This document shows, in pieces, positions 1,385-62,040 of a stretch of 64,000 bases of DNA; the first letter of the stretch is position 1; each line of letters opens with the position of its first letter. Source of the stretch: Promethearchaeota archaeon. GTDB lineage: Archaea > Asgardarchaeota > Lokiarchaeia > Sigyniarchaeales > SOKP01. Under the pieces are notes generated by a model that worked only from the letters and a program-made list of their open reading frames with translations, did not search any database and was not told the origin of the DNA. Where the stretch lies: positions 128,001-192,000 of the forward strand of contig JAHPZI010000028.1 of assembly GCA_019058295.1 (NCBI GenBank). Reading direction: 5' to 3'. Position numbers and translations under genes: made by a program.

Positions 1385-2509
1385 TCATTTTTTTTTTCCT
1401 AACACCTTCCATTTTTTAAGGATAATTATTGTAATTAATCCGGAAGTAATGATTAGAACGCCGTATAGAATTGATGGATCATAACTACTAATTGTTTTAC
1501 TTTTGTCTTTAAACTGCTCATTTTTTACACTATTTATTATAAGATTATTAATATATGTATTATTTTCACAAGGGGGACCCCCCCCATAATACCATATAGT
1601 ACCAAATCCCTCCTCATTATCAATTAATATATTGTCTTTAAATAGACTATTATGGGTCTCATATATACTAATTCCAGTATCAGTCTCAACTATAAAATTT
1701 GCTTCAATCGTTAAATTATTATTATTATCATAAAGTTCAATTCCACACCAAGCTTCACCAAATATTTGATTAAATGAAATTTCGGTATGTTGGACATATC
1801 CACATCCAATTCCTATAACACAACTAGATATTGTATTATCTGTTAAAAAAGAATTAATCGAATCATATATATCGATTCCAGTGGATGGGCCATTTATTAC
1901 ATTCCCATTAATATCAAGATTATCAGAATTATATCCTCTTATTCCTTTTAAACCCGAAGAAAAGTAAAAATATCCGTCAAGGATGAATTCAATAATATTA
2001 TCAGAAATATTATTGTTATCACTGTTCTGCAAATAAATCCCCACCGAGTCCCACGTCAAATAACTCGACTTAATATAACAATTTCTAATCTCACCATTTG
2101 AAACACTATCAAATCTTATCCCTGTTTGCTTTTGTAGAATTGTACAATTTTTAATTCTAAATGATTCAATAGAATTAGCTATACGTATACCAATTCCAAA
2201 ACTTCCTATCAATGTTATATTTTCAAGTATATAAACTCCATCAACTTTAACACACCAATCTTGTGCCTCTGCCCATGACCAATTACCATCTCCAGCTCCA
2301 CCCGAATCGTCAATGTATATAGAAGTTAATGTCCAAGACCCAGATGATTTTGGAGATATTAAATTATTATCCTCATCGTTTTTGTTAAGTAAATCATTCT
2401 GAACTATATCATTATCTTCTGATATAATTATATTGTTCAAAGAACTTATAATTAGTATGATAGAACTTAAGATTATTGCAAGCTTAATAAACTGCTTCTT
2501 AATTCTCAA
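1385..2509 (-). CDS. Cell-surface right-handed parallel beta-helix (NosD/CASH-like) protein with Loki-CTERM-like sorting tail
   Basis: Repeats of GIxLxxSxNNxIxxNxI; signal peptide; C-terminal ISSYD + TM + KK tail resembling the I[PS]GY[DN]-TM-basic Loki-CTERM pattern. Confidence 0.8.
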   Translation of the reverse strand: MRIKKQFIKLAIILSSIILIISSLNNIIISEDNDIVQNDLLNKNDEDNNLISPKSSGSWTLTSIYIDDSGGAGDGNWSWAEAQDWCVKVDGVYILENITLIGSFGIGIRIANSIESFRIKNCTILQKQTGIRFDSVSNGEIRNCYIKSSYLTWDSVGIYLQNSDNNNISDNIIEFILDGYFYFSSGLKGIRGYNSDNLDINGNVINGPSTGIDIYDSINSFLTDNTISSCVIGIGCGYVQHTEISFNQIFGEAWCGIELYDNNNNLTIEANFIVETDTGISIYETHNSLFKDNILIDNEEGFGTIWYYGGGPPCENNTYINNLIINSVKNEQFKDKSKTISSYDPSILYGVLIITSGLITIIILKKWKVLGKKK

Positions 2510-2623
2510 TGATTTTTACCTTTCTAATAAAATAATAATAATTTAAATTTCATAATATTTATATATTTACAAATTTGAAAAATAAATATATAAACTGATT
2601 AGAGTCTTAATTCAAAAAAACAA

Positions 2624-2839
2624 GTGATTATTATAACTAAAATTTCAACGTATATAGGAATTGTTTTGATTTTAATTGGAACTATGATAGCATTTTTGGG
2701 TATTACTCTTATATTTTTTAATTTATATCTTATAATAATTCCTGGTTTTCCCACGATTGTAACAGCTTATGCTGAACTGTCTATCGGATTCGCTATTATC
2801 GCTTTAGGTATAATTTTAATGATATTTATAAAGAAATAA
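2624..2839 (+). CDS. Small two-TM membrane protein
   Basis: 71 aa, two hydrophobic helices, basic C-terminus. Confidence 0.65.
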   Translation: MIIITKISTYIGIVLILIGTMIAFLGITLIFFNLYLIIIPGFPTIVTAYAELSIGFAIIALGIILMIFIKK

Positions 2840-2930
2840 ATGTCAAGGTTGCTTAAAGTGTGAAAGCAATCAAACCAATAAAATTCGATGGTTAGACATA
2901 GTTTTAAAATTATCTTTCTTCTCTTTAGCT

Positions 2931-3356
2931 CTAAACTACTGTTAATCCTATAATTAATAAAGAGATTATTATAAATATTATAAAACCAACAATCAGTCCA
3001 ATTATCAATAAATAAACCAAAATTTTAATGACAAACAATAGAGATACAATGTATTCTTGCTTGTAAAGTTTTGAAGCTAAAAATGAGCCTATAAATATAT
3101 GTATCAAGAAGGAAATTATGAAAGCAAGAAATATACCGTAAGCTATGAAATTGAAAATTGTATAGAATATTATATTTATACCTAACCAAAGGATATTTAG
3201 TATAATAGCTGGTTTGTAGGACTCATCCAGATTTTTCCTTGCGGCAATCCATTTTGTAATAAAAATTCCTATTATAAAGATTATTATTGAAGCGATTATT
3301 ATTATAATGGAGTCAAAAATAATATTCCCTGTAATAAATGCACCTTGCTCAATCAT
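2931..3356 (-). CDS. Hypothetical 4-TM membrane protein
   Basis: Four hydrophobic segments; start overlaps the afpA stop (ATGA, 3353-3356). Confidence 0.75.
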   Translation of the reverse strand: MIEQGAFITGNIIFDSIIIIIASIIIFIIGIFITKWIAARKNLDESYKPAIILNILWLGINIIFYTIFNFIAYGIFLAFIISFLIHIFIGSFLASKLYKQEYIVSLLFVIKILVYLLIIGLIVGFIIFIIISLLIIGLTVV

Positions 3357-3904
3357 TTTTCCAATTTTTGTAAAATAATACGTTTTATTTCTGAAAAATC
3401 TGAAATTACAATAATCCCTTCCATTTTTTTTAATTTATTGACGTTTTCAATTTCAATATCCCTGATCTTCAGAATTAAAGGGCTCCCATCTGGTCTGGAG
3501 GTTACGATTGGTTCCAAATGTTGATCTGATGGAAATAAATAGACTATTACACCACCCTTTATTGCTTGGGCAACACAATTCGTAATTAAGGTATCAGCAA
3601 TTCCATAGACAATTTTAGCTACGGAGTTAGCAGACACAGGGCAAACCAAGAAAAGTTCATACTTTCCTAGCTGTAGTGGTCCGGCAAGAAATGGATTATT
3701 CGGTGTCTTTTCAACTTTTACTTTCTTTACAACTTCATTCAAATACTCCCATTGTTTATACCACTTAACTACCACAGCTCCTTCTTTTGAGAGCATAACA
3801 GTTATATCAATTTGCTCCCTGAATTCATTCTGTAGAGCTTTCATTAAATCTATAGATTCTTTTATAAGATAACCAGTTCCACATATCCCCCAAATGAGTT
3901 TCAT
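3353..3904 (-). CDS. afpA: Archaeoflavoprotein AfpA (HFCD flavoprotein family)
   Basis: IWGICGTG, LSKEGAVVVKWYK, PFLAGPLQLGKY and PVSANSVAKIVYGIADTLITN match AfpA family motifs. Confidence 0.85.
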   Translation of the reverse strand: MKLIWGICGTGYLIKESIDLMKALQNEFREQIDITVMLSKEGAVVVKWYKQWEYLNEVVKKVKVEKTPNNPFLAGPLQLGKYELFLVCPVSANSVAKIVYGIADTLITNCVAQAIKGGVIVYLFPSDQHLEPIVTSRPDGSPLILKIRDIEIENVNKLKKMEGIIVISDFSEIKRIILQKLEK

Positions 3905-4040
3905 ATTGATCTTTCTCGATTATTTTTTGATTTGTTAAATATAATTATTATCTTTTTAAAAAAAACTATACTTATAATATCTTAGAAGAATTCATAATTA
4001 TTTTAACATTTAAAATCCTATTCAAAGTTAACTTTAAGAA

Positions 4041-5285
4041 TTGATTGAAATGACCGATTCAGCATATGTATATTTAGATTATAATGCGACAACTCCAATG
4101 GATCCAAGAGTTATTGAAGTAATTCAAAAACATTTTAAAGAAACTTATGGAAATGCCTCAAGTTTACATGCGGCTGGTCAAAGTGCCCGCCAAGTAATGG
4201 AGCAATCCAGAGAAACAATTGCTTCTTTAATTAATGCCGATAAGGACGATATATTTTTCACATCTTCAGGAACAGAAGCAGATAATCTCGCAATTAAAGG
4301 TGTTGCCTTCAAATGCAAAGATCGTGGTAATCATATTATCACCTCATCTATAGAGCATCATGCCGTTGAAAATACCTGTAAGGAGCTCGAGAAGGGTGGA
4401 TATAAGGTAACTTTTTTGCCTGTTGATAAATATGGCTTAATTGATCTAAACGAATTGGAAAATTCTATAACTGAAAAAACAATTTTAATAACTATTATGT
4501 TCGCCAATAATGAAATTGGCACTATAGAACCAATTAAAGAGATTGGCACAATCGCAAAAAAACATGATATAATTTTTCACACAGATGCCGTTCAAGCTGT
4601 AGGAAAAATTCCTATAGACGTAAATAAAATGAATATAGACATGTTATCTTCGAGTGCTCATAAACTTTATGGTCCTAAGGGTATTGGTATGCTCTATATC
4701 CGAAATAAAGGTAAAAGGGAAGGTTGGGGAAAATATATTGAACCACTTTTGCATGGAGGCGGACATGAAAGAAAAATGAGACCGAGTACTGAAGCAGTTC
4801 CCTTAATTGCTGGTTATGCAAAAGCGATTGAACTTTGCAAAGAAGATATGACAAAAGAAATGGAGCGACAAACAAAACTACGGGATAAAATTATTAAGAC
4901 CGTGACTGAAAATATAGAAGATTCTTATTTGAATGGACACCCAACTCAACGTCTTCCTAATAATGTAAATTTAGGATTTAAGTTTATTGAAGGGGAATCG
5001 ATTTTGCTTAGTTTAGATATGGAAGGTATAGCAGCTAGCACGGGATCGGCATGTTCTTCAAAGTCATTGGAGGCTTCTCATGTATTATTGGCAATTGGTC
5101 TAAAACCAGAAGAAGCGCATGGTTCATTAAGGATTTCATTTGGAAGATTTACAACTGAAGAGAATATTGATTATTTTCTTGAAAAATTACCCCCAATCAT
5201 TGAACGATTGAGGAAGATGTCTCCACTTAAAAAAGGAGTTAAATACATGTTTGATGAAAGCTCAGAATCAGGGCATCATCATTGA
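4041..5285 (+). CDS. iscS: Cysteine desulfurase IscS/NifS (start possibly ATG 4050)
   Basis: YLDYNATTP, HTDAVQ, SAHKLYGPKG (PLP lysine), STGSACSS (catalytic Cys). Confidence 0.95.
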   Translation: MIEMTDSAYVYLDYNATTPMDPRVIEVIQKHFKETYGNASSLHAAGQSARQVMEQSRETIASLINADKDDIFFTSSGTEADNLAIKGVAFKCKDRGNHIITSSIEHHAVENTCKELEKGGYKVTFLPVDKYGLIDLNELENSITEKTILITIMFANNEIGTIEPIKEIGTIAKKHDIIFHTDAVQAVGKIPIDVNKMNIDMLSSSAHKLYGPKGIGMLYIRNKGKREGWGKYIEPLLHGGGHERKMRPSTEAVPLIAGYAKAIELCKEDMTKEMERQTKLRDKIIKTVTENIEDSYLNGHPTQRLPNNVNLGFKFIEGESILLSLDMEGIAASTGSACSSKSLEASHVLLAIGLKPEEAHGSLRISFGRFTTEENIDYFLEKLPPIIERLRKMSPLKKGVKYMFDESSESGHHH

Positions 5286-52843: not shown

Positions 52844-54616
52844 ATGGCTAAAAAGGATTCGAAATCTAAAATGGAAACATCTCCCGTAGAAATTTTGAAG
52901 AAAGAACATGAAAGCTTAATTAAAGCGAAATCTGAAGCTCTAAGCATGCGATTAGAGGAGTTATCTAAAAATAAGAGAATTGAAATAGATGAAATTAAAA
53001 GCCAAATTAGTGCACACGAAAAAGAAATAACTAAGATCGAAGAAAAATTCGCAAAGGAAGAAGCTTCAGTAGAAAAAGACGTTGATGATGAATTTGCTCC
53101 TCAAATAAAGAAAATTACATCAGAATTAGAGATTAAACAGAAGAAATTAGATGAGGCAATTAAAAAGGAAGAAGAACTAACCGTAAAAAAGAAAGCCTTA
53201 ATTGATACTATTAAAAATTTAAAAAAAACCCAAAAATTAGCAATATCTTTAGCAGAAAAATCTAAAGTTCTAAGTACGCAATTAAAAAGCCTTCCAGAAA
53301 AAGAAGAATCCTTGGAGGAAAAAACTACTTCGAAGTTAGGAATTGATAATGAATTTGACACCCAAATAAAGGATATTGACGCTAAATTAAGCGCTGAAGA
53401 GCAGAATTTAGAAGCTATTATCAAAGATATTGACGATTGGACCGTAAAAAAAAATGAATTAAAGGATATAGTAAAAAATTTGAAGAGAGAGAATGGGATC
53501 TTAGAAAAAGCGAGATCTAAAATTCTAAATCCTCGATTAGATGAATTATCTAAAAATAAGAAAAATGAAATAAACGAAATTAGGAAAAATATTAGTGCGA
53601 ACGAGAAAGAAATAACAAAGGTCGAACAAAATTTTGCAAAGAAAGAAGCTTCTTTAGCAAAAGAAGTTGATAATGAATTTGATCCTCAAATAGCTAAAGC
53701 TTTATCAAAATTACAGAAGAAATTAGAAGAAACAATCAAAAAGGTTGATGTAACGCCCGTAAAAAAGGAAGAATTAGTAAGAAAACCAAAAATCGAAGTA
53801 AAACCTAAAAAGGAGATCGCTCCTGAAGAACTTAGAATATGCCCCGCATGTGGGCGAGATACTAAAATTTCTCATAAATTCTGTAAATTTTGCGGTATAA
53901 GCTTTAATCGTATTGATGCTGTTATGACAAAATTATCTGACGCAGAAAAGAAAGAATTAGAGTCAGTTCTTAAAAAAGAGAAAAAGGAGAGAATATGTCC
54001 CGCATGTGGGCGAAAAATTAAACTAGGTATGAAATTCTGTAAATTTTGCGGCGTAGAAATTAGTCGTATTGAAGCAATATTGACAAAAGCAACTAAATCA
54101 GAGGCTAAAGAATTAGGAGCAGTACCTAAAAAGGATTTGAAACCTAAAAAAGTAGTCGCTCCCAAAAAGCAAAAAGCAGGTGTAATAGCAGCCGCTGATA
54201 CGGTAGGGCTATCCGAAACAGAAAAGAAAGAATTGGAAAGAACAGAATCTGAGATGGATATAAAAAAGAAAGAAGTTAAATGTATTGTACATAGAGGGCC
54301 TATCGTTGGAAGTATATATCTCTGTCCAAACTGCATGACCTATTATTGCGTAAAATGCGCTAAAGCATTGAAAGAAAAAGGTGAAGCCTGTTGGTCTTGT
54401 GGAGAAAAGATTGAAATTGCCGTATCTGAATCAGAAATTAAACAAAGAATTAAAGATTATGAGACCAGATTAGATTCTCTTAAAATAACTGTAAAAAATC
54501 TTGATGAAAGTTTCTTCACCGGTGCCATTGGTAAAGAAGAATATATAAAAATGAAAGATTCTCTGACAGAAAAAATAGGGGTTCTATTAAGAGAAATTAA
54601 TAATTATAAAAGTTAG
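52844..54616 (+). CDS. Repeated coiled-coil, two Zn-ribbons, RING/PHD-like 8-ligand finger and SHOCT-like tail
   Basis: Internal repeat RLxELSKNK...EFxPQI; two copies of RICPACGR...FCKFCG; CIVH-x10-CPNC-x4-CVKC-x10-CWSC; GAIGKEEYIKMK. Confidence 0.8.
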   Translation: MAKKDSKSKMETSPVEILKKEHESLIKAKSEALSMRLEELSKNKRIEIDEIKSQISAHEKEITKIEEKFAKEEASVEKDVDDEFAPQIKKITSELEIKQKKLDEAIKKEEELTVKKKALIDTIKNLKKTQKLAISLAEKSKVLSTQLKSLPEKEESLEEKTTSKLGIDNEFDTQIKDIDAKLSAEEQNLEAIIKDIDDWTVKKNELKDIVKNLKRENGILEKARSKILNPRLDELSKNKKNEINEIRKNISANEKEITKVEQNFAKKEASLAKEVDNEFDPQIAKALSKLQKKLEETIKKVDVTPVKKEELVRKPKIEVKPKKEIAPEELRICPACGRDTKISHKFCKFCGISFNRIDAVMTKLSDAEKKELESVLKKEKKERICPACGRKIKLGMKFCKFCGVEISRIEAILTKATKSEAKELGAVPKKDLKPKKVVAPKKQKAGVIAAADTVGLSETEKKELERTESEMDIKKKEVKCIVHRGPIVGSIYLCPNCMTYYCVKCAKALKEKGEACWSCGEKIEIAVSESEIKQRIKDYETRLDSLKITVKNLDESFFTGAIGKEEYIKMKDSLTEKIGVLLREINNYKS

Positions 54617-54809: not shown

Positions 54810-55067
54810 ATGAGAATCTCTGTGGAAGATAGTCGGACAGGCAAGCTGATTAAGCTCGATGTAAAAGAACATCATCAGATTGAACGAATTGTAGACATTA
54901 TCGTCAAACATATGGGGATTATTAGCACAGAACAACGCTCATATACTTTAGTTTTGAACGATCAGGAATTGCCTACAACCATAACAATAGAAGATGCTAT
55001 ACACAAATATGGCTTAAAGGAAAATGACAAATTAGCCTTATGGGCTAGAGTAGTTGGGGGCTTTTAA
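54810..55067 (+). CDS. Ubiquitin-like modifier precursor (C-terminal GG-F)
   Basis: Beta-grasp pattern MRISV...GKLIKLDV...YGLKENDKLAL, ending ARVVGGF; adjacent to E2, E1 and JAMM genes. Confidence 0.9.
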   Translation: MRISVEDSRTGKLIKLDVKEHHQIERIVDIIVKHMGIISTEQRSYTLVLNDQELPTTITIEDAIHKYGLKENDKLALWARVVGGF

Positions 55068-55627
55068 TCGTCGATTATAACAATATCGTCATCTGCCTCT
55101 TCTGCTTCTGCTTTTTCAAAATCATACTTTTCTTTAAGATCTGCCATCGTATTATGTTTGAAAAATTCAGTAGCCTCTAAACAAATAGGATAATTTAAAG
55201 GATCATCTGGATTTGGATTTTCTACGAGTAGTTTTAGTGCTTTTACAGTGGTATCCATATCAGATAAGAGAGACCATTTCTTTAAGACATTAAGGCAAAT
55301 GTATCCCGTTCCAGTTTCTCCAGAACCTAATTCGACCGGATGGATATTTGGGTGGAATATAGGGGAATACCAAGCAAAATCTATGCCTCCTGGATAGGGG
55401 AAGTTTCGATTAAGCTTCAGCATAATTTTATGATTCTTTTGAGGGATTAATTCCAAGCTTTGCGATCCCTCCTTTAAAACAAAGCCTAACGATTTTATAT
55501 TTACAATTAATTCAACTGAGTTTTCCTTGCGAATTATACTATTATCCTCAAGAACGTTTAAACGTTTTAAAGACTCCAATTCATTTTCGATACGGTCTTT
55601 CCAAATTTCAAGTGGAAGCTCTGGCAT
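55064..55627 (-). CDS. Ubiquitin-conjugating enzyme E2 (UBC fold)
   Basis: RIENEL, FPYP, PIFHPNI...GYICLNVL, W, NPNPDDPLN; acidic tail. Confidence 0.93.
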   Translation of the reverse strand: MPELPLEIWKDRIENELESLKRLNVLEDNSIIRKENSVELIVNIKSLGFVLKEGSQSLELIPQKNHKIMLKLNRNFPYPGGIDFAWYSPIFHPNIHPVELGSGETGTGYICLNVLKKWSLLSDMDTTVKALKLLVENPNPDDPLNYPICLEATEFFKHNTMADLKEKYDFEKAEAEEADDDIVIIDD

Positions 55628-55706: not shown

Positions 55707-56588
55707 TTATTTTTTATTAAAACTGCAGATCCAACACTTAGGATCTTTTCTTTTTTCTATTATATCAAATTTATTTGTGAGCCCATTGTAATTTAGTTGT
55801 TTATTTATAAGAGGTTCTCCTATATTTGGATGCCATTTTCCATGTTCTTTGAAATAATCTATTCCTAAGACAAATTTTAATACCTGTTGTGTTTGAATTC
55901 CACCAATTATAGCGGTAGTAGTAATTATTGTTGCCATTTTTCCCATTGACTCACCATTTTCGGATTTTATTTCTTGTCCAGTACAGGAAAACTTTTTCCA
56001 CATCAAATTTAAATCAGCACTAGTTATTCCACATTGTAAACAAGCTGCATTTTCAACTCCTGAATATACAGCTTGTACAGAACCAAAAAACTCATCGATA
56101 CCACTGTCAATAAAAGGAATACCATAATAATAGGCATAATTATTTGCTTGAAGTCGGGCTTCGATATTATCGAGACATGAACAGACAACATCAGACTGTT
56201 TATAAAGATTTTTATCAATATCATTTAAATCCTGCTTTAATGCAACAATTTCTACCTCTGAATTTAAATTTTCGCAGGCTTCTTTAACAACATCAACTTT
56301 ATATTTATTTTCAATTGTACATTCCATGTTAAATAATACACACCGATTAAGATTTGATTTTTCAATAATATCATAATCGATTAAAATAATTTTTCTAATC
56401 CCAGTAAGTACTAGATTTTTAATTAATTCATTTCCAGTGGCACCAGCACCCACAACCATAATCGTTGCATTCGATATTTTATTTTGATCCCATCCAGGGA
56501 TTCGTTTTTGACGATCGTAAATATCCTCATCTATCGAATCTAATCCTAATACTTTATAATCTTTATTAATATCTTTTTTTCTAGTCAT
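55707..56588 (-). CDS. Ubiquitin-activating enzyme E1 (ThiF/Uba family)
   Basis: YDRQ, VVGAGATGNE, DYDIIEKSNLNR, CLDNIEAR, CLQC...CWIC Zn site, putative catalytic Cys in FSCTG. Confidence 0.93.
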   Translation of the reverse strand: MTRKKDINKDYKVLGLDSIDEDIYDRQKRIPGWDQNKISNATIMVVGAGATGNELIKNLVLTGIRKIILIDYDIIEKSNLNRCVLFNMECTIENKYKVDVVKEACENLNSEVEIVALKQDLNDIDKNLYKQSDVVCSCLDNIEARLQANNYAYYYGIPFIDSGIDEFFGSVQAVYSGVENAACLQCGITSADLNLMWKKFSCTGQEIKSENGESMGKMATIITTTAIIGGIQTQQVLKFVLGIDYFKEHGKWHPNIGEPLINKQLNYNGLTNKFDIIEKRKDPKCWICSFNKK

Positions 56589-56612: not shown

Positions 56613-57104
56613 TCATTTTGGGGAAATAATAGCAAAACTTATTGGTTTGTATCCATTTTCAGAATTATTATCAAGACTAAAAAATTTATAATATTTTTTT
56701 ACGGGATCCACGACTAGAGCTACTTGATACGACTCAGGAAAGAAAAATCTCTGAGTTTCCACATCTGTCGAACTCAAGAAACAGCCAAAATCGGGATGTG
56801 AGTGCCACCACCCAACTATTCTTAAGTCTTCATTATTTCTTTTACTTTTTAACTTCTGAAATTTTTTTTCGTATTTACCCGCAGTTCCTTCTATTTGTGT
56901 CGTTGAATATTTATGGCTATGGACAGCACCATTAATAAAAAGTTGATTTTCAATGACAACATAAATTATATCATTCCATTTTAAAATGTTCCCAATTAAG
57001 TAGCCAAAAATTTCTAATTCGTTTTTTGTACATAATTTTTTAATGTTATTTAAAACAGCTTCTTCCATATATACAGGGAATACAAAATTTTCGTCAATTG
57101 TCAT
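56613..57104 (-). CDS. Rpn11-like JAMM isopeptidase
   Basis: LEIFGYLIG...VGWWHSHPDFGCFLSSTD, ALVVDP. Confidence 0.93.
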   Translation of the reverse strand: MTIDENFVFPVYMEEAVLNNIKKLCTKNELEIFGYLIGNILKWNDIIYVVIENQLFINGAVHSHKYSTTQIEGTAGKYEKKFQKLKSKRNNEDLRIVGWWHSHPDFGCFLSSTDVETQRFFFPESYQVALVVDPVKKYYKFFSLDNNSENGYKPISFAIISPK

Positions 57105-58036
57105 TTTTCATTTTGCCTTGCTTTTAATTTCTCTAAGACTGAAATCTTTAACATTTCAGTAAATATCGAATAGATTTTTTCTTTTGAGTCTTCTTTAATC
57201 GCTGAGAATCCATATGTTTTTATCTCAAAGGCTTTTTCAATTTTATCAGGTTCAAACGCAGAATCCTTTAAATCTTGAAAATTTGCTATAATATAAAAAT
57301 CGGCTTTCTTAACTAATGGTCTCAATCGGTTAAAAAGACTCCTAGTTCTACCCAAGTTACTAGCTGCTGAATTAGATACAATACAAATAATTTCGACGGT
57401 GTCTAATAATTTCCTATAAAGTTTTGATTTATTTACCAATTCTTCTAAATCTATTTCTCTTAATTTAAATTGTTTTAAATCTTCTACACCTGATACTGCT
57501 ATAAGCTTCTCAATTATTTCATTTAAATCCTCATCCAATTCAAGGACTGTCTGACCGGGGAATAAATCCATTATTGTAGACTTCCCTACGCCAATCTCAC
57601 CAATTAATAATATTTTCGGAGGTATAAATATATGTTCTTCGATGAAGTCATCAAAATTGTTGAAAGTTGAAACATTTCCGTCAAAATTTTTTAATAATTT
57701 ACTGTATCTTTTTAAAAATTCAGATTTCATTAGTTCTACTTTAGGTCTAGCCTCTTCTTCTAAGTCGTCTATATCGGTAACAACAATAAACATACAACCA
57801 AATTCATCATCATAAGAATATATAAAATTGAAGTTTCTAAAGTTTAGAGCCTTAATTTCGCCCCCTTTTATTTCTTGTGCAAAACTGCTAATTGCTGTAA
57901 GAAAACCACTAATTAAATCGTCATCAGCTTCTAAATCACTGGAGCTCTTTCCAAAAAAATTTTTAGAATAACACAAAATGCCTCCTGCCGCGATAATAAG
58001 AACCCTAGAGATCATTTTTATATCCTTTTTTTCCAC
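57101..58036 (-). CDS. Longin-like domain fused to a Ras-superfamily small GTPase domain with degenerate G3/G4 (start GTG 58036 or downstream ATG, MISRV)
   Basis: IIAAGGILCYSKNF...DDDLISGFLTAISSFAQEI (longin-like); GEIGVGKST, IDLEE, ANFQD, FSAI. Confidence 0.8.
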   Translation of the reverse strand: MEKKDIKMISRVLIIAAGGILCYSKNFFGKSSSDLEADDDLISGFLTAISSFAQEIKGGEIKALNFRNFNFIYSYDDEFGCMFIVVTDIDDLEEEARPKVELMKSEFLKRYSKLLKNFDGNVSTFNNFDDFIEEHIFIPPKILLIGEIGVGKSTIMDLFPGQTVLELDEDLNEIIEKLIAVSGVEDLKQFKLREIDLEELVNKSKLYRKLLDTVEIICIVSNSAASNLGRTRSLFNRLRPLVKKADFYIIANFQDLKDSAFEPDKIEKAFEIKTYGFSAIKEDSKEKIYSIFTEMLKISVLEKLKARQNEK

Positions 58037-58339: not shown

Positions 58340-58465
58340 TTGGGAGAGAAAGAAGAAAAGCACCCAACTATAGTAGAAACTGAAGAGAAAGAAATACCGG
58401 AAAAAAGACCACCTAATGATAAAATTCTCTATTTCAATATAGCAGATAACAAAGATAAAAATTAG
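58340..58465 (+). CDS. Candidate 41-aa small protein
   Basis: TTG-started MGEKEEKHPTIVETEEKEIPEKRPPNDKILYFNIADNKDKN; purine-rich, preceded by AGAAGG. Confidence 0.4.
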   Translation: MGEKEEKHPTIVETEEKEIPEKRPPNDKILYFNIADNKDKN

Positions 58466-58899: not shown

Positions 58900-59703
58900 T
58901 TAAAGAAGTTCTAAAATCTTAATTTTCATTCCGTCCTGAGCAGCAATGATGTTCTTTATCTTGGTGTATTTTTTTAGTTTTTCAACTTGGCTTGGGACAT
59001 GATTTTTTTTAGAGCGTGGTCCATCCATATAGGACCCAAAATGAGTTATTATTAAGCTGTCAAGCGGGGGATTTATTTTATTTAAATAAGGAATAACTTC
59101 ATCTGTGCATAAATGCCGTTTGCATGTAATTGAGTCTGGTCTTAAAAGATTTAAAATTAAAATATTAACACCATTAAATTGTTCTGAAAAACCATCGAAA
59201 ACCATGGTATCACTGGAGAAAGCAAGTGAGTAATTCTTCAGATTAAATCTAATCCCGAATCCTTCTACTTTTGGACTATGAATTACCTTAGTAGCAACAA
59301 TATCTACTCCCTTATAGTTAAAAGTATCACCCGGTGTAAAAATTACAGTTTTTTCGAGCATATTTAAATGATAATCCGAAATGAATCGCATGGTGTCTTC
59401 CGTTGTAAATAAAATCCCCTTTTTAAAGTAATTGTAATTTCTATCATGAAGAATTTCATGGGAAGATTCAATAATAGCACTTAAATCGTTAAAATGATCA
59501 ATATGAACATGGGTAGCAAAAAATAAATCAGTTTTAGTTGGATCTTCTTTATATTGATTTATTCGAACTAAAGCTCCTGGTCCTGGATCTATGTGGGCTT
59601 GTGTACCATTAAATTTATAGAGATATCCTCCCGTAGCTCTATGTTGGGTTCTGATATGATGCCTTCCTCCTCCAGATCCGAGTATAATTAATTCATCTTC
59701 CAT
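58900..59703 (-). CDS. MBL-fold hydrolase (PhnP/RNase Z-like)
   Basis: ILGSGGG, IDPGPG, THVHIDH, VIH, SSDT, RHL, THF. Confidence 0.88.
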   Translation of the reverse strand: MEDELIILGSGGGRHHIRTQHRATGGYLYKFNGTQAHIDPGPGALVRINQYKEDPTKTDLFFATHVHIDHFNDLSAIIESSHEILHDRNYNYFKKGILFTTEDTMRFISDYHLNMLEKTVIFTPGDTFNYKGVDIVATKVIHSPKVEGFGIRFNLKNYSLAFSSDTMVFDGFSEQFNGVNILILNLLRPDSITCKRHLCTDEVIPYLNKINPPLDSLIITHFGSYMDGPRSKKNHVPSQVEKLKKYTKIKNIIAAQDGMKIKILELL

Positions 59704-59781: not shown

Positions 59782-62040
59782 TTAGCTGGAAGATTTTAAT
59801 TCTAAAAGTAAATTTTCATCAATTTCTTTTATTAATGGTTTTAATCTACTGCTTAGAATTTTTTGAATTCTATTTTTTAACAAATGTTTTTTATTTTCTT
59901 TTTGAATTTCGTCAATTGTGGATTTAGCAATACTCTGCCCCATTTTACCTAGCTCTACTAACTTACAGTGAATTCGATTTTGACTGTTAAATTTTTTAAT
60001 AGGACTTTCTAGTGGAATTTTAAATATGTGCCTAGAGCTTTTCTTGATTTGAATTTGTTCAGTCATAATCTTAGAATTCAGAATTGCCACGAGATAATAA
60101 GCCTCATCAATATTCTCAGTGGCGTAAAAGCTTAAATCTCCAGTAATTAAAAAATTTCCCTGAATTACTGCTGAATTTAGAATTGAGCCGGAATTATTAT
60201 ATACCACTTTAATTTTTGATAATTGTCTTTTATTTATCAGTTTTGACCATCGATTTAGGTTATCCATCAAAGAATTATGATATGTAGTATCTTTCTTTAA
60301 TCTTAAATAGATTTTGTTAATTTTATCATAGAATTTTTTCGCATTTGGCATTAAATTATTGTAATTAAATTGCAAATCTATTTTAGAAAGAGGTAAAAAA
60401 GCATTATAATAATCATAGACATGAAATTTGACCAATTCTGTACTCTTAATTATTTTGAAAAGATACTCTTTCTCAATAATTTCATTTTTATACTCTATTT
60501 CATTCCAAGGAGCTTTTGCTCTTTTGAAAATTCTATCATCTGGATTAATATTGACTAAAGTATCGTTAATTTGATTACCCTTGATAAAAATTAAGTTTCT
60601 TGGATTTAAATCTGCTCCTTTATGAAATAAATTTTTATAATCACTTTCTATAGAAGGGAATAATTCCTTTTTTTGTTTTTTAAGAATTAGTTTTTTAGTA
60701 TAAACTTTATTACCTTTATTTTCAATTGAATAAGGAACTAGAGTCTTAATTTCTTTCAGTTTCAATTCTACCTTAGTAAAGTAATTTATATTACTATTGT
60801 CATTATTTAACGTGAAATGATAAGCTGGTAGTTCTAAATTTAAATTTGGTTGAGGAATTTCGGATTTTTGAGCATAAATGCATATAAAATCAATGTTAAA
60901 TATTTTTTCAATCTTTATATCAAAAGTCCAGAATTTAACATTCTTAAAACCTTTAAAATTGCGAAACCGAGATGCATGGGAGCCAGTTATTACCCCTTTG
61001 GTTATTACAAAAAATATTTTGGCATTTTTCTTCATAAAAACTTTTGATTGATAAAAGAAAAGTGCTGCAATCTCAATGTTTAGTATGTTTTTTGGTCTCG
61101 GTTTAATTTCAAGTTGTTCTGCTAACTTTTTTATTTTTTCTTGATACTGAGAAGATTCTATATCTCTAAAAGTATACCATGGTGGATTTCCTATAATAAG
61201 ATCAAACCTATTATTCTCAATAATTTGAAATAATGAATCTGCTACATATAAATTGATGTGTGAGTTTTCATGAGTAGCAAAATCTTTCAGAACAATTATA
61301 AAATTAATTTTAGTAATAAAAATTGAAATTGGATTAATATCAAAACCATAAACATTATTAATAGCTAAAATTTTTTCTTTTTCGCTTTTATTTGCTGAAA
61401 TTATTTTACTTAATATAACAATCAAGAAATTTCCTGACCCACAACACGGATCAAGAACCGATTCTCCAAATTTATAAGCTTCATTTACCATCTTTTCTAC
61501 TAAGAATGGAGGAGTATAATATTCTCCTGATTTATGTCTAAGTAATGGAGAAATTATTTCTTGAATCAAATAATCAAATCTATGTTCAAGTTTAATATCT
61601 AAATTAAAGATATGTTCAGCTAGATTACAAATTAATTCGTTATATGAACTAAAATCTTTATTTTCATATATTTTACATAATGGATGAAAATATTCAAAAT
61701 TAAACAAATTGAGAGTTTTAAATTTCTCTTTTATGAATTTTTGGCAGTTTTCAAAAAATTTAGCATTTATATTATGATAATTAATAGATTTGTTTCTATT
61801 TATAATATATTTAAAGATAAAAATATGGCTAACGAAATATAGCAGAGAAAATGTAATATATAATTCAATATTTACGCTTTTTGGACCGTATATTGATTGA
61901 AAATCGGTATACCAGCTTTTATAATGGTTATTATTATGAATCTTTTTTTCAATTATAAATTTCTTTAAGTTTTCAATTTCTTCATTTAAAGTATCTAATT
62001 TAAGTTTATTATCTTTAAAATATTCTAATATTCTAAACAA
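59782..62040 (-). CDS. N6-adenine DNA methyltransferase with long C-terminal target-recognition region (type IIG/Eco57I-like M-S part)
   Basis: GEYYTPP, VLDPCCGSGNFL, GFDINP, FDLIIGNPPW, AILNS. Confidence 0.88.
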   Translation of the reverse strand: MFRILEYFKDNKLKLDTLNEEIENLKKFIIEKKIHNNNHYKSWYTDFQSIYGPKSVNIELYITFSLLYFVSHIFIFKYIINRNKSINYHNINAKFFENCQKFIKEKFKTLNLFNFEYFHPLCKIYENKDFSSYNELICNLAEHIFNLDIKLEHRFDYLIQEIISPLLRHKSGEYYTPPFLVEKMVNEAYKFGESVLDPCCGSGNFLIVILSKIISANKSEKEKILAINNVYGFDINPISIFITKINFIIVLKDFATHENSHINLYVADSLFQIIENNRFDLIIGNPPWYTFRDIESSQYQEKIKKLAEQLEIKPRPKNILNIEIAALFFYQSKVFMKKNAKIFFVITKGVITGSHASRFRNFKGFKNVKFWTFDIKIEKIFNIDFICIYAQKSEIPQPNLNLELPAYHFTLNNDNSNINYFTKVELKLKEIKTLVPYSIENKGNKVYTKKLILKKQKKELFPSIESDYKNLFHKGADLNPRNLIFIKGNQINDTLVNINPDDRIFKRAKAPWNEIEYKNEIIEKEYLFKIIKSTELVKFHVYDYYNAFLPLSKIDLQFNYNNLMPNAKKFYDKINKIYLRLKKDTTYHNSLMDNLNRWSKLINKRQLSKIKVVYNNSGSILNSAVIQGNFLITGDLSFYATENIDEAYYLVAILNSKIMTEQIQIKKSSRHIFKIPLESPIKKFNSQNRIHCKLVELGKMGQSIAKSTIDEIQKENKKHLLKNRIQKILSSRLKPLIKEIDENLLLELKSSS

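Follow-up and report, generated by a model that had tools for sequence, protein, structure and literature searches.

A longin-fused, Arf-like G domain with altered switch motifs encoded beside ubiquitin-like conjugation genes in Asgard archaea

Fusions of longin or roadblock domains to small GTPases ('Rag/Arf-like' GTPases) have been described in Asgard archaea (10.1101/2020.10.19.343400; Tran et al. 2024, PMC10933270), and in the cultured Lokiarchaeon MK-D1 small-GTPase genes are generally found outside operons with regulators (PMC10933270). Archaeal ubiquitylation genes are known from the operon of Caldiarchaeum subterraneum, which according to the published abstracts encodes ubiquitin, E1, E2, a small RING protein and Rpn11 (PMC5654768, PMC6043591), and from the ubiquitin-ESCRT (endosomal sorting complex required for transport) clusters of Asgard archaea (PMC9192718). 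Those abstracts list no GTPase (PMC5654768, PMC6043591), and the word does not occur in the text on the Asgard clusters (PMC9192718). Here we describe a gene in which the two themes meet. It lies in a stretch of 64,000 nucleotides of a Promethearchaeota archaeon of the order Sigyniarchaeales (contig JAHPZI010000028.1, positions 128,001 to 192,000; hereafter the window), encodes a longin domain fused to a degenerate, Arf-like G domain, and stands at the head of an operon for conjugation of a ubiquitin-like protein (Ubl).

The partners of the eukaryotic signature proteins of Asgard archaea are unclear because their genes are rarely found in operons. In the cassette described below, longin/Arf-type GTPases and ubiquitin-like conjugation are locked together in a fixed order, which supplies a concrete partner set for one GTPase subfamily: a RING-like protein, membrane-embedded in relatives, together with six or seven soluble proteins of small size. 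In the literature that we could search, which is incomplete and no proof of absence, the fusions and the Asgard ubiquitin clusters are described separately, and neither their linkage nor an operon-heading degenerate clade was found.

The longin and G domains and their motifs

The gene and its parts are the following (residue numbers refer to the protein of 304 amino acids).
57101 to 58015, minus strand: gene for the longin and degenerate Arf-like GTPase protein, 304 amino acids plus stop; start placed by homologue starts and an upstream AGGA
57635 to 58015, minus strand: longin domain, residues 1-127; AlphaFold2 model (predicted local distance difference test, pLDDT, 84) and structure matches
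57104 to 57625, minus strand: small-GTPase-fold domain, residues 131-304; Foldseek and profile match
57575 to 57601, minus strand: G1 P-loop GEIGVGKST, residues 139-147, intact
57515 to 57541, minus strand: acidic segment ELDEDLNEI in place of the switch-I/G2 threonine region
57440 to 57451, minus strand: G3 position, DLEE where DxxG(Q) is canonical, residues 189-192
57272 to 57283, minus strand: G4, NFQD where NKQD is canonical, residues 245-248
57197 to 57205, minus strand: G5, SAI; S in 20 and A in 22 of 24 clade members

The longest open reading frame (ORF) extends from 57101 to 58036 on the minus strand and would give 311 amino acids from a GTG at 58036. Since all homologues begin at residue 8 of this frame and an AGGA lies about 9-13 nt ahead of the ATG at 58015, that ATG is the likelier start and the protein most likely has 304 amino acids. 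A first, sequence-only reading of the window had given the span 56613-58036; the ORF is present there, and the span covers two genes, that of the GTPase and that of the adjoining JAMM protease.

The full-length AlphaFold2 model, built with 22 homologues, reached a pLDDT of 85 and a predicted TM-score of 0.81. In residues 1-127 the secondary structure assigned by DSSP runs as two strands, a helix, three strands and two helices (E-E-H-E-E-E-H-H), i.e. the five-stranded sheet in the order that defines a longin fold, with no N-terminal helix. The structure matches (VIA) agree with this assignment: CPLANE (Z 13.8), VAMP7 (13.7), TRAPP (13.3), Sec22 (13.2) and SRX (11.7) outrank the roadblock proteins (Z 9-11.7), and a Foldseek search with the longin model returned TRAPP, AP sigma and Mon1-Ccz1. 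For the G domain, Foldseek matched Arf, Arl, Rab, Rho and MglA structures with target TM-scores of 0.6-0.69, and a family profile that included the canonical relatives found Arf1 among the PDB sequences at E 3.6e-22. Searches of the GTPase against Pfam and NCBIfam gave only sub-threshold P-loop and small_GTP matches (e.g. TIGR00231 at 19 bits with a cut-off of 42.5, and Roc at 13.6 bits with a cut-off of 27). Taken on model and profile, the protein is a longin fold fused to an Arf-like rather than a Rag-like G domain, and the fusion of a longin with a small-GTPase domain that the sequence-only reading had proposed is borne out by the structure matches and the Arf profile. The Rag/Gtr family was considered and rejected: the longin domain precedes the G domain, which is the reverse of the order in Rag proteins, and the nearest profile is Arf and not Rag.

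In a quick maximum-likelihood tree a single branch (SH-aLRT, the Shimodaira-Hasegawa-like approximate likelihood ratio test, 100) separates 47 degenerate sequences, the clade of the window protein, from 13 canonical ones, and sequences of one genus or family mostly cluster. The canonical members (26-33% identity) can be aligned with the window protein over its full length and carry the full set of PT, WDxxGQ and NKQD motifs; no JAMM, E1, E2 or Ubl gene was found within 5 kb of any of the 13. When the GTPase was searched for in 400 genomes of the phylum, only two families of the window's order gave strong matches (E below about 1e-60); the genome of the window itself contains only one clade member.

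Motif conservation was read in 24 clade members. G139, G144 and K145 of the P-loop are invariant in all of them. Where the canonical relatives have a conserved PT, the clade has the acidic segment, in which D161 is invariant and E166 is present in 22 of 24; the invariance of D161 in this replacement points to a changed constraint rather than to decay. At G3, both the glycine and the glutamine are absent in all 47 clade sequences (a second DLEE, located in the longin domain, is irrelevant to G3). At G4, N245, Q247 and D248 are invariant, and position 246 is F in 20 members, M in three and Y in one; in the deeper members P0123-P0125 it is K or W, with K kept only in P0124 and P0125. As these two keep NKQD but already lack G3, G3 was apparently the first motif to be lost. 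The intact P-loop, the DLEE and the NFQD had all been read correctly from the sequence alone and are located at residues 139-147, 189-192 and 245-248. The degeneracy is, judged from these alignments, fixed in the clade and not a local accident.

Measured against a classical small GTPase, the protein thus has the G-domain fold and G1 and lacks the G2 threonine, the G3 DxxG and the G4 NKxD. Its identity across genera is 57-66%, comparable to that of JAMM and E2. A G-domain fold without at least one catalytic or switch motif and under purifying selection is our operational definition of a pseudo-GTPase, and it describes the window protein. The G domain appears to have been converted into a probable non-switching module under strong selection.

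The conjugation cassette and its inheritance

The GTPase gene is the first of four tightly packed genes on the minus strand (GTPase, JAMM, E1 and E2), with gaps of 24 nt between JAMM and E1 and 79 nt between E1 and E2. The genes and elements around it are listed here.
57101 to 57104, minus strand: ATGA overlap of the GTPase TGA with the JAMM ATG; not conserved in relatives
56613 to 57104, minus strand: JAMM/MPN+ metalloprotease, 163 amino acids, motif E...HSH...S..D intact; Pfam JAB, E 1e-12
55707 to 56588, minus strand: ThiF-type E1, 293 amino acids; Pfam ThiF, E 1.5e-49
55064 to 55627, minus strand: UQ_con E2, 187 amino acids, with a conserved acidic-hydrophobic C-terminal tail resembling a SUMO-interacting motif; Pfam UQ_con, E 2e-9
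54810 to 55067, plus strand: Ubl, 85 amino acids, C-terminus GG-F, convergent with the E2 gene
52844 to 54616, plus strand: coiled-coil/zinc-ribbon protein, 590 amino acids, with a C-terminal 8-Cys/His finger, candidate E3
54281 to 54400, plus strand: the 8-ligand Cys/His finger of the 590-amino-acid protein
58340 to 58465, plus strand: micro-ORF, 41 amino acids, TTG start, divergent from the GTPase gene

Of the parts of an archaeal eukaryote-like ubiquitin operon, a Ubl with GG and an extension, an E1, an E2 and a JAMM/Rpn11-like protease are present at this one locus. Across 15 orthologues the JAMM residues E31, H101, H103, S111 and D114 show no variation, and the E1 is 64-77% identical across family f1 and 49% identical in family f4.

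The direct genetic link between the GTPase and the Ubl-conjugation genes, which the sequence-only reading had claimed, holds well beyond the window. We compared coordinates by hand over 74 JAMM places in the order, with checks on sampled loci, and found a clade gene directly upstream of JAMM and on the same strand in about 63 of them; another six lie at contig ends. In the sampled loci the GTPase gene is followed by JAMM and then E1 at identities as low as 39-43%, family f4 and the P0124 group included; that the linkage to JAMM and E1 recurs in dozens of genomes is far beyond chance. In family f1 the E2 gene comes after E1, and Ubl converges on E2 in most sampled loci: the two genes are convergent in 12 of the 13 sampled loci that have a full-length Ubl match, with Ubl identities of 79-89% in ten of the 13 and 61-74% in three. 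The overlap of the GTPase stop with the JAMM start was confirmed in the window sequence (TGA is the reverse complement of 57101-57103 and ATG that of 57102-57104), but the translational coupling that had been read from it is not supported as a property of the system: the overlap is specific to this genome, the relatives having gaps of 20-70 nt (for instance 30 nt in L004, which is 91% identical).

The clade gene occurs in four forms, namely as a single copy, as in the window, as two to three tandem paralogues, as a fusion of about 880 amino acids, and as a GTPase-TPR-like gene that lacks the longin domain. The fusion consists of longin, GTPase, a TPR-like region and a CN-hydrolase of the nitrilase superfamily, and its ORF ends at the JAMM start. 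It replaces or joins the gene of 300 amino acids upstream of JAMM at L052:6668-9307, at L062:11154-13766 and in P0121; at L067:10001-12625 the fusion and a Ubl gene are convergent, and JAMM, E1 and E2 genes are absent beside them.

JAMM was found in 72 and E2 in 73 of the 154 genomes of the order, largely the same genomes. Within the window's genus the cassette is present in five of nine genomes; in the four that lack JAMM and E2, one of which is 98% complete, the GTPase query gave weak matches only (E about 1e-17 to 1e-24). The same holds for families f2 and f3, three genomes of which are single contigs: JAMM and E2 are absent and GTPase matches are weak only. The cassette can thus be dispensed with, and genomes keep or lose it whole. 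In a genome that is 99% complete and in which neither JAMM nor E2 was matched, a clade match of 52% identity (G234:C165:16064-16954) contains an in-frame TAA; it may be a relic, now in decay, of a cassette that has been lost.

Further members and flanking genes

The micro-ORF, for which there is no Pfam family, carries the motif HPTI...(K/R)PPN(D/E)KI and recurs at the corresponding place in over 30 loci. We found 23 DNA versions of the motif, with all four proline codons in use, and as these differ mainly at third codon positions the micro-ORF is coding. It is present in 68 of the 154 genomes of the order, nearly all of them holders of the cassette, and where the GTPase gene is missing it diverges directly from the JAMM gene.

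The finger of the 590-amino-acid protein (residues ~456-524 in tblastn) was matched near the Ubl gene in seven sampled loci (L049, L053, L054, L056, L057, L061 and L062). The same finger ends a multi-pass membrane protein at L065:14685-15725 and L067:12984-14018, follows a single predicted membrane segment at L066:13685-14119, and in L065 and L066 a gene for a small protein with two transmembrane segments lies between the finger-protein and Ubl genes. A weak Prok-RING_1 match was obtained for the protein of L067, and no Pfam RING match for that of the window. The finger protein beside Ubl is a candidate membrane E3, and the polytopic RING-like neighbour in L065 and L067 would fit a partner of longin/Arf type.

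Of the 20 E2 orthologues that were read, 19 have the acidic-hydrophobic tail (55064-55114 in the window), one of them a member of family f4. The same tail forms the C-terminus of the third, distal GTPase paralogue in both three-copy loci for which this copy was read (L009:2736-3683 and L065:8744-9691), a hint of a docking site shared by E2 and this paralogue.

Several other features of the flanks were seen. Upstream of the cassette in the window and on the same strand lie a gene of 267 amino acids (58900-59703, minus strand; its metallo-beta-lactamase-type label comes from reading the sequence only) and a gene of 752 amino acids with an NPPW adenine-methyltransferase-type motif (59782-62040, minus strand). 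The first of these is upstream in both sampled relatives of the genus (L049 and L064), the second was matched in L049 only, and outside the genus neither lies beside the cassette. In L064 (G168:C181), a same-genus relative of 91% identity, about 2.6 kb (1813-4468) is inserted between E1 and E2, which are 79 nt apart in the window. On three unrelated contigs a canonical Arf/Ras-type GTPase gene of 175-195 amino acids was found 0.1-6 kb upstream of the cassette (L001:4453-4980, L065:3309-3857 and L067:9311-9898); there is no such gene near the cassette in the window.

Possible roles and relation to known systems

Since the gene is inherited together with those of JAMM, E1, E2 and Ubl in about 70 related genomes, its product very likely takes part in the work of the tagging machinery. 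As to what it does there, we give about even chances to a dedicated accessory component of the cassette, namely a non-switching, guanine-nucleotide-binding pseudo-GTPase that serves as adaptor or regulatory subunit of JAMM, E1 and E2. The clade would have descended from canonical Asgard longin and Arf-like GTPases and at its base would have lost the elements for sensing and hydrolysis of the gamma-phosphate (the switch-I threonine and the switch-II DxxGQ), with retention of the P-loop, the guanine-specifying N and D of G4 and the SA of G5. Because these retained elements are conserved, guanine nucleotide is probably still bound, and because the switch-I threonine and the DxxG glycine are absent, classical gamma-phosphate sensing and hydrolysis would not take place. 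The longin domain probably offers a surface for dimerisation or docking. In a cassette that reads micro-ORF, one to three longin-GTPase genes, JAMM, E1 and E2, converging on Ubl and the RING-like protein, the GTPase would position or gate JAMM, E1 and E2, probably at the RING-like protein, which in relatives appears to be membrane-embedded. A prediction of the complex of GTPase and JAMM gave scores of 0.11 and 0.01 where the mark is 0.32, a result that counts neither for nor against binding.

Several observations weigh against a nucleotide-binding accessory subunit. The G3 aspartate is not invariant (N, T or E in eight of the 24 clade members), and some paralogues may therefore bind Mg2+-nucleotide less well or not at all. 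Five of the 74 JAMM loci have no GTPase gene (G218, G227 with a remnant of 60 amino acids, G233, G237 and G248), which means that the enzymes can exist without the GTPase in cis. The cassette is patchy even within a genus, so its function is dispensable. Finally, adaptor, regulator and substrate could each have a conserved neighbourhood, which by itself does not tell them apart.

A more specific form of the accessory role is rather unlikely in our view. Here the protein would be a nucleotide-loaded regulatory subunit that physically couples membrane signalling of the Arf/longin type to a membrane-bound machine of RING protein, E2, E1 and JAMM, with the product of the micro-ORF as a further subunit or a substrate. 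If this regulatory subunit exists, ubiquitylation under the control of a GTPase, as in TRIM23 or the GATOR2-GATOR1-Rag axis, would have a precedent in prokaryotes.

We also think it rather unlikely that the cassette has the longin-GTPase as its main substrate, to which Ubl is attached and from which JAMM removes it, with control over GTPase-type signalling or a membrane function as the outcome. A substrate might well share operon and inheritance with its enzymes; the copy number and the fusions (CN-hydrolase, TPR-like) vary as they might in targets or effectors, extra Ubl genes are convergent to GTPase-TPR-like genes in G218, and Ubl is convergent to the fusion of 874 amino acids in L067. However, substrates encoded in the operon are unusual for E1/E2 systems, with the exception of C-terminal self-conjugation of the type known from the cyclic-oligonucleotide-based anti-phage signalling system (CBASS), and the GTPase has no C-terminal Gly-Gly. 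Conjugation through the GTPase's own C-terminus, as in CBASS, was rejected on this last ground.

We are doubtful about a GTPase switch that still works in a non-canonical way, for instance by dimerisation-activated hydrolysis in which the catalytic residues come in trans or from the acidic insert, and that times conjugation against deconjugation. The conserved P-loop, G4 N/D and G5 would serve such a switch, the invariant D161 of the new acidic segment could contribute to it, and the tandem paralogues could pair as Rag-like heterodimers. Classical TRAFAC GTPases, however, need the DxxG glycine for contact with the gamma-phosphate, and this glycine and the switch-I threonine are absent throughout the clade.

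We are similarly doubtful that the whole cassette serves as an accessory module for stress or antiviral defence, of the Bil or CBASS-Cap2-Cap3 kind, with the degenerate GTPase and its nitrilase-fused form as sensor or effector. Its patchy distribution (72 of 154 genomes and five of nine in the genus), variable flanks and fused CN-hydrolase form would suit such a module, as would the methyltransferase-type gene upstream in the window's genus and the matches of JAMM and E1 to the CBASS JAB and E1-E2 models, which are at the domain level only (E 4e-8 and 3e-15). On the other hand, GTPase, E2 and Ubl have no PADLOC match, and the cassette is not fast-evolving, since Ubl is 79-89% identical across genera in most sampled loci and the enzymes 60-77%. 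Moreover, the tree largely follows genus and family, and the flanking genes include some with housekeeping roles (such as SepCysE, ribosomal S8e and isocitrate dehydrogenase).

That the genes are neighbours by historical accident with no shared function is very improbable: the five JAMM-E1-E2 loci without a GTPase gene would fit, but about 63 loci, down to 39% identity, share the same gene order and strand, the genes are gained and lost together, and in G234, which has no JAMM or E2 match, the sole clade match carries an in-frame stop.

The dedicated accessory component can be placed beside several known systems. The Asgard longin-GTPase fusions combine the same two folds in one chain, but they keep PT, WDxxGQ and NKQD and do not lie beside ubiquitin genes, whereas the window's clade lacks the switch residues and heads a Ubl operon. 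With the archaeal ubiquitylation operons the window shares the GG-extended Ubl, the ThiF-type E1, the UQ_con E2, the JAMM/Rpn11-like protease and, as a candidate, the RING-like protein, and it adds the degenerate GTPase and the micro-ORF as constant extra members. ESCRT-type Pfam families were absent from the gene tables of six related loci; the flanks in the window were not scanned for them.

Pseudo-GTPases are G-domain proteins that lack one or more G motifs, such as CENP-M and AAGAB; the pseudo-GTPase domain of AAGAB binds AP sigma, which itself has a longin fold, and PDB entry 9ddt turned up in the Foldseek search. They resemble the window protein in having a G-domain fold without catalytic or switch motifs, which in them is used as a scaffold. 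Unlike CENP-M and AAGAB, with which it has no detectable sequence relationship, the window protein keeps G1, most of G4 and G5, and from these it likely binds nucleotide. The SRX-SRbeta pair (SRX being part of SRalpha) and the MglB-MglA pair also bring a longin or roadblock domain together with an Arf- or Ras-like G domain (Z 11.7 for both SRX and MglB), but as separate chains and with a functional switch, whereas the window protein is fused and lacks the switch residues; the comparison with Rag-, Arf- and Rab-longin pairs is one of analogy.

In TRIM23/ARD1, a RING E3 whose C-terminal domain is of the Arf type, and in GATOR2-GATOR1-Rag, Arf- or Rag-type G domains or longin proteins are directly coupled to ubiquitin machinery of the RING type; these systems are eukaryotic, have other architectures and show no sign of common descent with the window cassette, so that here too the likeness is by analogy only. 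Should the longin-GTPase indeed gate or target Ubl conjugation, the cassette would be the first case of GTPase-linked ubiquitylation in a prokaryote.

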